Source: Negativicutes bacterium (GTDB lineage: Bacteria; Bacillota; Negativicutes; UBA1444). From it: a DNA stretch of 64,000 nt. Both the position numbers and the translations under genes were made by a program. A model generated the notes under the pieces. That model worked only from the letters and a program-made list of their open reading frames with translations, made no database searches and was not told the DNA's origin. Each line of letters opens with the position of its first letter. Position 1 is the stretch's first letter. The DNA lies in the NCBI GenBank assembly GCA_963665275.2, contig CAXXIN010000004.1, forward strand, positions 1-64,000, read 5' to 3'. Positions 6,101 through 25,376 of the stretch are shown here, one piece after another.

Positions 6101-6886
6101 TCAACCTCCCTCGCTGGAATCCTTCAGCGATTTGCGGCTAGAAGCCGGCAAAAACACCATCAATTTGGCCTCGATCGCTACCGGCGAGTCACCGGCTTGC
6201 AACGACAAGATCCCTTCCACCATCATCCGCCTCAGCTCGACTTCCTCGTTGGACATTAGTTTCAATTTATTTGCGAATGGATGCCACATCACATAGCCGG
6301 TAAAAATACCAAACATCGTCGCCACAAAAGCTGCCGCAATCGCATGCCCCAAGGCATCAATATCCGCCATATTTCCGAGAGCCGCGATCAGGCCGATAAC
6401 TGCGCCGAGCACCCCCAGCGTTGGTGCATACATTCCCGCCTGGGAAAATATCAGCGCACCTGTCCGGTGGCGTTCTTCCATCAGGGCGATATCAAGTTCC
6501 AATACATCCCGTACGAACGTCCCGTCCATGCCATCGATGACCATGGTCAATCCACCTCGTAGAAACTGATCGTTGACGCCCGTCAAACTGTTCTCCAGTG
6601 CGAGCAGTCCCTCCCGCCGCGCCGTCTGGGCAAAGCCAACCATGATTTTAACCAGTTCCGCCGCGTGCATGAGCTGCGGTTTTTTGATCAACAGTTTGAA
6701 ATACGTCGGCATTTTTTTGATAATTGCCATAGGAAATGCATTCAACAAAGCGCCAAAGGTCCCAACAAAAATAATCAGAAACGCAGCCGGATTGATCAAA
6801 ACTTCCGGTGGCGCTCCTTTCATTGCCATGCCCACAACTACTGCCAACAGGCCGACGATCATCCCCGCAACTGTCGAAATCTCCAA
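6101..6886 (-). CDS. motA: Flagellar stator protein MotA
   Basis: ARREGLLALE, YAPTLGVLGAVIGL, AFVATMFG..HPFANKL; TTG start at 6886 after a GGGGGA RBS. Confidence 0.95.
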   Translation of the reverse strand: MEISTVAGMIVGLLAVVVGMAMKGAPPEVLINPAAFLIIFVGTFGALLNAFPMAIIKKMPTYFKLLIKKPQLMHAAELVKIMVGFAQTARREGLLALENSLTGVNDQFLRGGLTMVIDGMDGTFVRDVLELDIALMEERHRTGALIFSQAGMYAPTLGVLGAVIGLIAALGNMADIDALGHAIAAAFVATMFGIFTGYVMWHPFANKLKLMSNEEVELRRMMVEGILSLQAGDSPVAIEAKLMVFLPASSRKSLKDSSEGG

Positions 6887-8267: not shown

Positions 8268-10190
8268 TCAGAAAAACAAGCTCCCCAGGTAAAAACTCAG
8301 GCTCCCCAGAACAACTGCCGAAACAACACTGCCAAGCGCGCCATAAACGACGATGCGCCAATCCCGAGTTTCCTGATACATAGTAACCAGTGTCGTCACG
8401 CAGGGAGTATAGATCATATAAACCAACAAGAACGTAAACGCTGTCAGCGGTGAAAAATTATGGATCAAAATATCGGCAAGATTCCCCGAACCTTGCGCTG
8501 CATGATAGATGATGCCCAAGCTCGACAACACACTTTCTTTCGCCGCTATGCCGAATAGGAGCGCCACAATGAGCTGCCAGTTCAAACCCATGAGGTTTCC
8601 GATCGGCTCCATGGCCTTTCCAATATGGACGATATAGGTATTTTCAAACGGTCCTGCGGGAAAGTTCGACAGACACCACATCACGACTGAGGAAGCGATG
8701 ATAACATTGCGGATTCTGTGGACAAAATTCAGGGTCATCCACGCCGCAGAACTGGTCAGACTCTGCAACGTCGGTTTCTGATAAGGCGGAAGCTCCATCA
8801 TAAAGGAACTTTCGCCTTCCCGCGGAATGAACCAGCTGACGATATAAGCCACCACAACCATCAGGGCCAGGCTAATTCCCAGCAAGGCTAACATAACCAG
8901 CGTGGCTGACGAAGAAACAAAAAAAGCCGAAACCAAAAATACCATAACCCCGAGCCGAGCCGGGCAAGGCGCGTAAGAGCTGACCAGTATTGCCACCGTT
9001 CGGTCGTAAGGACTCGAGAGAATGCGGGAAGCGAGAATACCGTTAACATTGCAGCTGCAACCAAGAACCAGCGGTAAAAAAGTCTTTCCATTCATCCCCA
9101 GCGCACTCATGATTCTATCAGCCAAAAACACCACGCGTACCATATAGCCGCTGTCTTGAATCAAAGTATAAAACAGGAAGAACATAGCCATCTGCGGCAG
9201 AAAACCCACAGCAGCCCCAACCCCTTTCAGGATCCCGCCAACAACGAGATCAGCGAGAAGTGGCGGTACACTTACCGAAATTAGCCAAGGCTCAAACATC
9301 TCACCGGCGATATCAAAAAATTGAGCCAACCATTCTGAAGCAGGCCGACTGACGGCAAAAGTCAGATAAAACATCACGCCAAAAACAAGCAACATTAAAG
9401 GGCCGCCCCATATTGGATGTAAGGTCCAGCGGTCGATCCTGTCCGAAAAAGTTTCACCCGTCGAGCGTTTTGCCGCAATTCGCGCAGCGATATCTTCTGC
9501 GATATTGTAACGAGTACTGATGATTTCACTTTGCAGAACATCGCTTTCCGTTTCCAGTTGTTTCAGCAGTTGCCAACGGGCGCTGCCATAATTGCTGTCC
9601 TTGATGGCGCCTTTACGTTCAGCGAGCATCCGTTCAACCTTTTCACCGTACCGGATCGCATAGCTGCGCCGCGGCAACAAAGGATCCGCAACTTCAAGCA
9701 CCGTTGCAAAGAGCTCTTCGGTGCTCAGCCGCCCTTGGGCCACTTCAGGAGTAACCGGTACTTGAAGTTCCGATTCGAGCCGATCGTGAAATACAATGAT
9801 CGACTGTTCCAAGGCCGCATCAACTTTATTGAGGATCACCATCACATGATGGTACCGTTCCAGCGTCTCCAGTAGTAGATAGAGGCCCCGTTCCAGGTTC
9901 ATCGCATCGAGAACCACCATGACAACATCAGGAGACTCTTCACGTAAAAAGTCATTCACCAGAACTTCTTCTGAAGAATGACTGCCAAATCCATATATGC
10001 CGGGGAGATCTGTAAAATGGAACTCCCTTTTTTGGTAGTGTACCGCCATGGTGCAAACCTCAGTGGTTTTGCCGCACCAATTGCCGATAATTTGACTTGC
10101 ACCTGTTATCGAATTAAAAAGGACGCTTTTCCCAACGTTCGGGTTTCCAATGATTGCAACACTGACAGGTTGATTGATTCCATCTTTCAC
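8268..10190 (-). CDS. feoB: Ferrous iron transporter FeoB
   Basis: G-domain GNPNVGKS, DLPG, NKVD; membrane domain with DSGYM, GCSCNV, CPARL, FMMELPPY, YTPC. Confidence 0.95.
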   Translation of the reverse strand: MKDGINQPVSVAIIGNPNVGKSVLFNSITGASQIIGNWCGKTTEVCTMAVHYQKREFHFTDLPGIYGFGSHSSEEVLVNDFLREESPDVVMVVLDAMNLERGLYLLLETLERYHHVMVILNKVDAALEQSIIVFHDRLESELQVPVTPEVAQGRLSTEELFATVLEVADPLLPRRSYAIRYGEKVERMLAERKGAIKDSNYGSARWQLLKQLETESDVLQSEIISTRYNIAEDIAARIAAKRSTGETFSDRIDRWTLHPIWGGPLMLLVFGVMFYLTFAVSRPASEWLAQFFDIAGEMFEPWLISVSVPPLLADLVVGGILKGVGAAVGFLPQMAMFFLFYTLIQDSGYMVRVVFLADRIMSALGMNGKTFLPLVLGCSCNVNGILASRILSSPYDRTVAILVSSYAPCPARLGVMVFLVSAFFVSSSATLVMLALLGISLALMVVVAYIVSWFIPREGESSFMMELPPYQKPTLQSLTSSAAWMTLNFVHRIRNVIIASSVVMWCLSNFPAGPFENTYIVHIGKAMEPIGNLMGLNWQLIVALLFGIAAKESVLSSLGIIYHAAQGSGNLADILIHNFSPLTAFTFLLVYMIYTPCVTTLVTMYQETRDWRIVVYGALGSVVSAVVLGSLSFYLGSLFF

Positions 10191-24251: not shown

Positions 24252-24505
24252 AAAAAAATAAAAACCCGTCCCTGCAACGTTATCATCGTTGCAGGGACGG
24301 GTTGTCTTGCGCCCGCGGTTCCACCCTGCTTGACCCCTACGGGGTCCGCCTTGCTTCTATTACGGGTTTTACTAAGTTCGTCGCTGAACCTTTCCTCCCG
24401 CGGTTTGGGAACGCCCTTCACCTGTCGTCAAACGCCGGTCTTCCACCCTCTCCGGCTCGCTGATGTCCTTTAGACCAGGTTACTGTTTCCCGCATCACCA
24501 TAATT
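24252..24505 (-). ncRNA. Glycine T-box leader of glyQS
   Basis: T-box AAGCAGGGTGGAACCGCGG (24313-24331); terminator AACCCGTCCCTGCAACG/CGTTGCAGGGACGGGTT plus T-tract (24252-24303); stem I with AGTA motif and GGC (Gly) specifier at 24413-24415. Confidence 0.92.
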
Positions 24506-24540: not shown

Positions 24541-24669
24541 GTTTGCCAAGGTCTTTTCGCATTATACTGCTATGTTCCTAAAGTTGAGCCACAAACAAAA
24601 TCCTTCTATTTTAAAATTCATTGAGTTATAATATTTATAGAAAACAATTACCGTTTAGGAGGTGATTTT

Positions 24670-24975
24670 TTGTATCCGCAGTCTTCCGTTTCACTTTCTA
24701 CAGCCGCTATCGAACATATCCGCAACAATGGCGGCGTGGCTCTTGTAGAAGCCAATCGGCCAGTCGCCGCCGGTTGATGCCGTGTTGATCTTGGCCCGTC
24801 CGTGCGACTGGGCGAACCTAATTCTAAAGACATCGATCGTCATCATCGATGGCAATATCAAGATGTAGTGCTGTATGTTCCAAAAAGTCTGCTCATTCCT
24901 AATCCATTTTCCATCGTTGTCTCCACTTTTTTCTGGTATCGTAGACTGGCTGTGGAAGGCTGGAAACTCATATAA
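24670..24975 (+). CDS. Putative 101-aa selenoprotein (G-U-C motif; HesB-like or CC/Se-motif family), missed by the ORF track
   Basis: AGGAGGTGA RBS then TTG; in-frame TGA at 24775-24777 followed by TGC (Cys); the frame stays open for 65 more codons to ..LAVEGWKLI-TAA; SECIS-like hairpin at 24794-24813; terminator directly after the stop. Confidence 0.8.
24794..24813 (+). promoter_or_regulatory. Candidate bacterial SECIS element
   Basis: GCCC-GUC-[CGUGC]-GAC-U-GGGC; the apical loop starts 23 nt after UGA with G at loop position 2 followed by U. Confidence 0.6.
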
Positions 24976-24978
24976 CTC

Positions 24979-25025
24979 ATGAAAGAAACAACCAGCGCTT
25001 TGAAAGCGATGGTTGTTTCTTTCAT
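24979..25025. terminator. Bidirectional terminator between the selenoprotein gene and the Smr gene
   Basis: ATGAAAGAAACAACCA..CGCTTT/AAAGCG..TGGTTGTTTCTTTCAT inverted repeat. Confidence 0.75.
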
Positions 25026-25028
25026 ATA

Positions 25029-25376
25029 TTACAACAAAACCAGTGTAATTCCCGCATTGCCGCGCCCCAGATCCCTGTCCCTTGACAATTCGGGACAGGC
25101 CTCGATCAATTGGCGTGATCCTTCGTTGAAAATATCCCATTCTTCGCCAGACACAAAAGCTTTAATGGTATTCCGTCGCTTCTTGACGCCCAAAAACTGT
25201 CGGACACTAATCCGCAATTTGCCACCCACCCCGCTGGACCCATAGCCATGGATCAGTTTAACGACCTTTGCGCCAGAAGCGCGGGCACGTCCAAGTTCTG
25301 ACATCAAACGCAATTCAGCCTGATTTGCCGTAGGCATTCCTTCTTCCAAGTTAACCATCAACAAATTCGCAGCCAT
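25029..25376 (-). CDS. Stand-alone Smr/MutS2-domain protein
   Basis: VNLEEGMPT, KLIHGYGSSGVGG, GNAGITLVLL. Confidence 0.8.
   Translation of the reverse strand: MAANLLMVNLEEGMPTANQAELRLMSELGRARASGAKVVKLIHGYGSSGVGGKLRISVRQFLGVKKRRNTIKAFVSGEEWDIFNEGSRQLIEACPELSRDRDLGRGNAGITLVLL

Follow-up and report, generated by a model that had tools for sequence, protein, structure and literature searches.

Locus and features

The window analysed here is a stretch of 64,000 nucleotides from a Negativicutes bacterium (UBA1444; NCBI GenBank assembly GCA_963665275.2, contig CAXXIN010000004.1, positions 1 to 64,000, forward strand). In the apparent gap between the T-box leader of glyQS and a convergent Smr-domain gene, the plus strand carries a reading frame interrupted by a TGA. 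Conservation across relatives makes it very probable that 24670-24975 is one recoded selenoprotein gene of the NF041239 family, in which the UGA would be read as selenocysteine (Sec, U) through SelB and a selenocysteine insertion sequence (SECIS). A preliminary description of this DNA, drawn from the letters and a list of open reading frames (ORFs), had proposed such a gene. The landmarks it named (TATAAT, Shine-Dalgarno sequence, TTG, TGA and a TAA ending at 24975) are all in the sequence and are listed below with the neighbouring features.

24627..24632, plus strand: TATAAT, -10 box of a putative promoter of the gene's own; letters present, kept in the orthologue L057
24657..24665, plus strand: Shine-Dalgarno sequence AGGAGGTGA; letters present, same nonamer in L057
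24670..24975, plus strand: coding sequence (CDS) of a putative 101-residue CC/Se motif family selenoprotein; TTG start at 24670, TAA stop at 24973-24975
24775..24777, plus strand: UGA, predicted Sec residue 36, followed by Cys37; homologue alignment
24794..24813, plus strand: predicted SECIS hairpin, codons G42-G48; 7 pairs, bulged U24809, loop CGUGC at 24801-24805; conservation and covariation
24979..25025, no strand assigned: bidirectional intrinsic terminator common to the CC/Se gene and the convergent Smr-domain gene; folding and terminator scan
25029-25376, minus strand: Smr-domain gene, convergent; domain match
24290-24504, minus strand: T-box leader of glyQS; 79.8 bits, below the Rfam gathering score of 93, E 4.8e-17

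Translation with TGA as U yields a single protein of 101 residues, exactly the one described earlier, in which U36 is followed by Cys37, the sole Cys, and which ends in EGWKLI. A standard ORF listing (table 11) breaks the CDS in two, 24670..24777 (35 aa) and 24802..24975 (57 aa), and it is through this split that standard callers miss the gene, as had been foreseen.

The read-through protein belongs to the CC/Se motif family

The read-through protein matches one NCBIfam model, NF041239, named "CC/Se motif family (seleno)protein" (49.3 bits, E 3.7e-13; curated cut-off 40 bits). Residues 7-98 align to positions 3-91 of this 91-position profile, so that the match runs through both sides of the UGA in one frame. 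A six-frame search of the organism's own genome gave NF041239 43.2 bits with one TGA. The CC/Se family to which the preliminary description had likened the protein is therefore a real one. Pfam returned no family for the protein at E up to 1, PF01521 included, and TIGR01911 (cut-off 66.35 bits) was matched neither by the protein at E up to 1 nor by the own genome at E up to 0.01.

A direct search for homologous proteins yielded no more than two fragments, each of 57 residues. When a profile built from 39 family sequences was run against 1.84 billion proteins, 648 cluster representatives passed E<=0.001 and 155 of them E<=1e-10. P0036, the closest Cys form (46% identity over 95 residues, E 1e-31), aligns its G-C-C without a gap on the G-U-C of the window, placing a Cys opposite the UGA with conservation on either side, the pattern that the preliminary description had asked of homologues. 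The 73%-identical orthologue L057 is likewise conserved on either side of U. Relatives carry the motif as C-U-G, C-C-G or G-U-C, with U36 aligned to the second Cys position of the C-C-G and C-U-G forms, and the U or second Cys always stands 6 residues ahead of G-P-S-V-R-L-G. This constant spacing indicates that the Sec position is fixed and that the partner Cys may lie on either side of it.

At the position of U36, a TGA was present in all 15 distinct homologues of the same spacing; in all, 27 homologues other than the window gene keep a TGA. A search with P0001 had given four further candidate loci, one of which (L089) proved to be GC-rich noise when read through and was rejected.

A conserved hairpin follows the UGA

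The stem-loop that had been placed with its loop 23 nt past the UGA and a G at loop position 2 exists (G24794-C24813, GCCCGUC[CGUGC]GAC-U-GGGC). Section 5 of a 2026 review (PMC13188914) gives as criteria for a bacterial SECIS (bSECIS) a loop of 3-9 nt, a stem of at least 4 bp, a G in the first two loop positions, a distance of 16-37 nt from the UGA and a minimum free energy (MFE) of -7.5 kcal/mol or lower. The loop of 5 nt, the 7 pairs with one bulge, the G at position 2, the distance of 23 nt and the energy of -11.1 kcal/mol all fall within the limits given in that section.

Comparative evidence was drawn from alignment A1, which holds 24 TGA-bearing homologues (22 distinct) of 28; a motif filter left out L056, L061, L062 and L065. 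One spurious pattern match, in L034 at 2674, was discarded. Among the 22 distinct Sec forms, the helix was paired in 94.2% of 154 cells, and the pair G24798:C24808 covaried (GC 13, AU 4, GU 4, other 1). RNAalifold predicted the identical helix unprompted. In the nine homologues that carry Cys or are Cys-less and keep a comparable peptide, only 49.2% of the helix cells were paired. An alternative register, from the MFE fold of 60 nt, was rejected, with 76.5% of cells paired and no covariation.

The codons of the hairpin are almost invariant among the 15 distinct same-spacing homologues: GGC (15/15), CCG (12) or CCA (3), TCC (14/15), GTG (14/15), CGA (15/15), CTG (9) or TTG (5), and GGC (15/15). 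For the invariant Pro two codons 3' of the hairpin, all four codons are in use. At its synonymous sites the hairpin hardly varies in Sec forms and varies freely in Cys forms. Since the SECIS and the signature peptide G-P-S-V-R-L-G occupy the same nucleotides, RNA structure and protein motif constrain each other.

In a second subfamily, whose 11 loci come from other families within the phylum, the hairpin reads CCYRC[CGUGNNN]GYRGG, with 55/55 cells paired and two compensatory pairs; none of 500 shuffles reached its covariation score. The distance from the UGA to (C/U)CGUG is 22 nt both in this subfamily and in the window. Of the four loci left out of A1, two (L056 and L061) share the CCCRUC-CGUG hairpin, at 34 and 40 nt past the UGA, and L062 and L065, both under the family cut-off, have a different hairpin without CGUG.

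Several observations weigh against the hairpin. Isolated as 28 nt it folds into the expected form at an energy that is unremarkable (z -1.56, 16/200 shuffles as good), and the 60 nt past the UGA are equally so (z -0.18, 81/200 shuffles as good); energy alone therefore does not set the hairpin above chance, and comparison does. The loop CGUGC does not fit the commonest pattern that section 5 of the review describes, N1-G-[G/U]-N-N2 with pairing of N1 and N2. Because the hairpin is nearly invariant, covariation within its own subfamily rests on one pair. On the comparative evidence, the hairpin at 24794-24813 is nevertheless a conserved SECIS.

One further orthologue, resembling that of G012 and found in a second organism (record 6 of run X2), aligns with the locus at 88% or more over only 51 nt (24769-24819). 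This short match around the UGA and the hairpin agrees with conservation of a SECIS at the nucleotide level.

Selenocysteine machinery and genetic code

The window itself holds no sel genes, as had been noted; they lie on other contigs of the organism's own genome (20 contigs, 92.6% complete), all with matches above cut-offs. selA (530.6 bits) adjoins selB (354.5 bits), and selD (393.1 bits; L010, G000:C14:37616-38536) has one in-frame TGA, which indicates that SelD itself contains Sec. The tRNA-Sec gene scored 63.8 bits and was called by ARAGORN as tRNA-SeC with anticodon tca. All four genes whose presence the preliminary description had wanted confirmed, selA, selB, selC and selD, are thus in the genome. 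A second selD-like match, without a stop, covers profile positions 84-310 only (C18:293703-294383). TGA is the commonest stop in the window, closing 22 of 38 open frames with 250 codons or more, and the code is therefore not reassigned.

By analogy with bacterial Sec biology, a ribosome reaching the UGA at 24775-24777 would meet SelB carrying Sec-tRNA(Sec) and bound to the hairpin at 24794-24813, and Sec would be inserted at the UGA instead of termination.

Distribution of the family and errors in its annotation

Among 41 relatives, close or class-level, 23 matched NF041239. In a sample of 401 genomes from the phylum, 100 matched, 98 with scores that exceeded the cut-off. By hand count, 116 of the 148 phylum matches listed had at least one in-frame TGA and 32 had none. 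Seven of the 148 have two in-frame TGAs (e.g., G116:C37, G421:C1:1682877 and G152:C15) and may be two-Sec forms or decayed copies.

Among the best 150 of the 648 protein representatives, six were C-terminal fragments of 55-60 residues, and nine had Trp at the Sec position within G-W-C/S/A/N (P0085, P0090, P0108, P0118, P0119, P0125, P0131, P0147 and P0149; eight by the motif filter, P0125 by eye). Homologues with Trp had been named beforehand as evidence that would speak against Sec, and on the face of the database this is what nine relatives print. The genomes read otherwise: at related loci (L069-L080) a TGA stands at the Trp position in 11 of 12, and of the 81 rows listed for genome matches to a profile of the Trp form, only 6 are without an in-frame TGA (hand count). 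Given those 11 loci, it is very likely that gene callers have mistranslated a TGA as Trp.

The organism's own genome contains two more family members. One (L021:1501-1785; G000:C17:142125-142409, minus strand) scores 45.1 bits with NF041239 and has its in-frame TGA in G-G-U-G-G. It shares the CCCGUC-CGUGC hairpin, placed at a distance from the UGA that is 9 nt longer, comes immediately after a DGC-domain gene and was probably also missed by ORF callers. The other (L023:1343-1608; G000:C18:188486-188751, plus strand) is Cys-less (G-D-I form) and is flanked by CstA and a GRAM-domain gene, an arrangement also present in L050. Two extra bases after ...HYQSI divide this copy between two frames, which may mark a pseudogene, a frameshift site or an error of assembly. 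In a further genome, L102 (G105:C21:3800-12600) has three family copies within 4 kb, with one TGA each (6363-6635, 9410-9685 and 9833-10096).

Independent DNA and RNA sequences

Run X2, from a second study, contains the whole stretch with zero differences and may be the source assembly. In X7, a 436-nt contig from a wastewater metagenome relative runs across the UGA and shows 36 differences, 35 of them listed. The 214 nt that precede the start account for 28 of the listed differences and the 221 coding nt for the other 7, of which 5 were synonymous when the codons were read by hand; none of the 35 lies in the UGA or the hairpin. The possibility raised earlier, that reads might show TGC or TGT at this codon, was thus not borne out, as TGA is kept in X2, X7 and the 27 other homologues.

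In a metatranscriptome (X13), three contigs jointly span 24667-24985 and nothing else of the 1.1-kb stretch, with 6-8 differences each, none of those listed falling on the UGA. These contigs weakly hint at transcription as a unit in a related strain. Against giving them more weight, they are three low-depth contigs from one run and a related strain, subject to limits of assembly and to possible DNA carry-over, and they record presence only, not transcript ends or level.

Alternative readings of the UGA

Were the UGA simply to terminate, the locus would comprise a 35-residue peptide and an unrelated 57-residue ORF, or else a nonsense mutation or sequencing error. The split made by standard ORF calling is what such a locus would give, and public protein sets have only the 57-residue fragment of relatives. 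This reading is very improbable, however: the TGA recurs in all 15 same-spacing homologues, in 116 of the 148 phylum matches listed and in the X2 assembly; the X7 contig spans the codon without a listed difference on it; one hidden Markov model covers both halves in one frame; and both a SECIS and the full sel machinery are present. Less credible still is read-through by other means, be it near-cognate suppression with Trp or Cys or a reassigned code, which the nine Trp-printing relatives would suit but which is contradicted by the TGAs in their genomic counterparts, by the use of TGA as the commonest stop (22/38) and by a conserved SelB-type hairpin at fixed spacing.

Predicted fold and relation to A-type carriers

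An AlphaFold2 model was built from the 39-sequence alignment, with Sec written as Cys, and had a mean predicted local distance difference test score (pLDDT) of 81.9 and a predicted template modelling score (pTM) of 0.72. Foldseek returned SufA (E 4e-4) and IscA as best matches. With VIA-align, the Z scores were 9.9 for SufA (root-mean-square deviation 2.8, 88 aligned), 8.9 for IscA and 8.6 for DsrR, and in a search of 48,161 chains that was independent of Foldseek the top 7 were all of the HesB/IscA/SufA fold, the next chain having a Z of 3.0.

Sequence comparison reached this relationship at the profile level. A search of PDB sequences with the family profile gave nothing at E up to 10, and hhalign against one canonical IscA-like protein gave a probability of 12% only; against a 9-sequence alignment of HesB-like and IscA-like proteins (A5) the probability was 84.6% (E 6.8e-6, 86 columns). 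The likeness to small HesB-like proteins, which the preliminary description had proposed, was therefore upheld by the predicted fold (Z 9.9) and by the profiles. In the profile comparison, U36 falls on the Cys/Sec column that corresponds to the first conserved cluster-ligand Cys of A-type carriers, which in these follows beta2, with a 4-residue insertion after U36. Eight HesB-like selenoproteins of the phylum have the motif G-U-G-G-P, with U on the first Cys of the canonical G-C-S-G-M. Such proteins, PF01521 matches with one TGA, are frequent in the phylum sample, and most of the eight (L081-L088) read without a C-terminal Cys-Gly-Cys (CGC).

The C-terminal CGC of the carriers is absent from the window protein. 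This absence, with the lack of a PF01521 or TIGR01911 match, places the protein outside both of these families. In its modelled fold, it looks like a distant branch of the IscA/HesB superfamily.

Comparison with known systems

Members of NF041239 resemble the window protein in size (about 95-100 residues), in the vicinal Cys/Sec before P-S-V-R-L-G and in a C-terminal EGWKL. They differ in the side on which the Cys lies: the window genus and the closest Cys form have it after Sec (G-U-C), whereas others have it before (C-U-G, C-C-G). A 2026 review lists the CC/Se family as a selenoprotein family (PMC13188914); the table there gives the family motif as CxxU, which the window protein does not contain. 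Full-text literature searches by family name and by accession (NF041239) led to this review only. Of its sources for the family, PMC2398784 and PMC5029168, the main texts are without the word 'Moorella', and their supplements may hold the original description.

HesB-like selenoproteins, an older known family (PMC1794560), correspond to TIGR01911, a PF01521 member with Sec. They share the predicted fold and have Sec on the same column, and both they and the CC/Se family are frequent in the phylum. The motif in TIGR01911 is G-U-G-G-P..., as opposed to G-U-C-...-P-S-V in the window, and most TIGR01911-type proteins also are without the C-terminal CGC; the window protein has in addition a vicinal Cys and the 4-residue insertion after Sec, and its likeness to TIGR01911 is at the profile level only (84.6%). 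The A-type carriers IscA and SufA (PDB 2d2a, 1r94 and 1x0g) and the Cys-less IscA-like DsrR (2k4z) match the model over 87-88 of 101 residues with Z 7.9-9.9, and the reactive residue of the window protein stands at the first ligand Cys position of IscA/SufA. Identity to these proteins is 7-12%; compared with the carriers, the window protein has Sec for Cys and no C-terminal CGC, and the likeness is one of predicted fold only.

Vicinal Cys and Sec also occur elsewhere. Mammalian thioredoxin reductase has a Gly-Cys-Sec-Gly redox centre at a flexible C-terminus, where vicinal Cys and Sec can form a selenenylsulfide. Its Cys/Sec pair is like that of window relatives with C-U-G; the two proteins are unrelated and the window motif lies in a beta-hairpin, so the comparison is an analogy only.

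Expression signals and gene neighbourhoods

The CC/Se gene is standalone and monocistronic, lying between glyQS and the Smr gene. A consensus promoter scan did not call its plus-strand promoter, because the -35 is weak. In L057, from another genus, GTTATAAT stands at about the same distance from the Shine-Dalgarno sequence, and the identical Shine-Dalgarno nonamer lies 4 nt ahead of a TTG start. The bidirectional terminator expected immediately after the TAA was recovered at 24979-25025, where the hairpin folds at -28.5 kcal/mol (z -8.8, equalled by 0/200 shuffles) and a scan found terminator-like sites on both strands. Nine same-genus genomes have the orthologue near the same Smr gene, with a response-regulator gene between, and on the other flank either glyQ (3 loci) or DUF3298/HAD genes (at least 5 loci).

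Neighbours were surveyed at 48 places. At seven of these, in six genera, a same-strand gene of thiol or sulfur redox lies within about 150 nt: MsrB, a rhodanese, thioredoxin (twice), a thioredoxin-thioredoxin reductase fusion (two places of one genus) and a Pyr_redox_2-rhodanese. At four places with Cys-less or ECC forms, the gene follows CstA. A regulator with three HTH_3 domains is convergent to the family gene in L094, L105 and L110, which belong to different families.

Possible functions of the Sec-Cys pair

The predicted product would have the HesB/IscA/SufA fold, with Sec36-Cys37 in the connection between beta2 and beta3. We tentatively favour, ahead of a carrier role, a function in which Sec36-Cys37 would form a redox-active selenenylsulfide/selenolate centre that is recycled by the thioredoxin system and acts in thiol, persulfide or sulfur transfer. 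The gene neighbourhoods give a weak pointer to redox chemistry of thiols or sulfur.

A number of findings weigh against this redox role. No redox neighbour is present at 41 of the 48 places, the window gene itself has no informative neighbour, and some NF041239 members have no Cys at all. At three places in two genera (G014, G036 and G020; L026:1124-1773, L028 and L030), a C-U form ends a run of cytochrome b, HycI and HupH_C genes, starting where the HupH_C gene ends, and at two others (the own-genome paralogue L021 and L051) the family gene adjoins DGC-domain genes; [NiFe]-hydrogenase-maturation and DGC-domain neighbours fit a metal role rather than redox.

These neighbours lend themselves to an alternative function for the same recoded gene, as a selenium analogue of the A-type Fe-S or metal carriers. 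A dimer with two Sec-Cys pairs would supply four ligands for a bridging [2Fe-2S], iron or nickel, for delivery, for example, to hydrogenases. The HesB/IscA/SufA-like predicted fold and the position of Sec36 on the first cluster-ligand Cys column are in keeping with such a role, as is the distribution of canonical PF01521, which was not found in the 92.6% complete own genome and occurs in 1 of 61 sampled genomes of the class. Against it, two of the three ligands of the carriers reside in the missing C-terminal CGC, and Cys37 is the sole Cys; no match to PF01521 or TIGR01911 was found at the sequence level; and Cys-less members of the family exist. Nor are NF041239 and PF01521 clearly exclusive across the phylum, as they co-occur in 11 of 401 genomes against 17.5 expected by chance, a comparison in which related genomes are not independent. 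We consider the carrier role unlikely, though it is the best supported of the alternatives.

Elements of both functions can be joined in a more speculative proposal, which we regard as improbable. In it, the CC/Se family would have branched from the A-type carrier superfamily as a selenium-dependent line that replaces IscA/SufA in anaerobic spore-forming Firmicutes without them, its thioredoxin-recycled Sec-Cys pair passing on building blocks (sulfur, Fe-S or Ni-Fe), for instance when hydrogenases mature. PSVRLG would then be frozen because the peptide doubles as the SECIS.

Significance

The CC/Se family is already known, being both curated and listed as a selenoprotein family, and current knowledge is not overturned by the present analysis. 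To this it adds comparative proof of a SECIS, dual coding of PSVRLG, and a link to the IscA/HesB superfamily in which the predicted Sec occupies a ligand position.

The analysis also bears on annotation. The NCBI pipeline names proteins from NCBIfam models. Here, what is very probably a real gene is split by stop-to-stop callers, and one in four of the genomes sampled from the phylum carries the family, mostly in TGA forms. Public protein sets hold the family as pieces of 55-60 residues or, very likely, as versions mistranslated with Trp.

For the family itself, the fold link, the placement of Sec on the ligand Cys column and the SECIS within the most conserved peptide turn a "hypothetical selenoprotein" into one whose function is testable. 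Cluster or metal binding on the one hand and thioredoxin cycling on the other may now be tested against each other.

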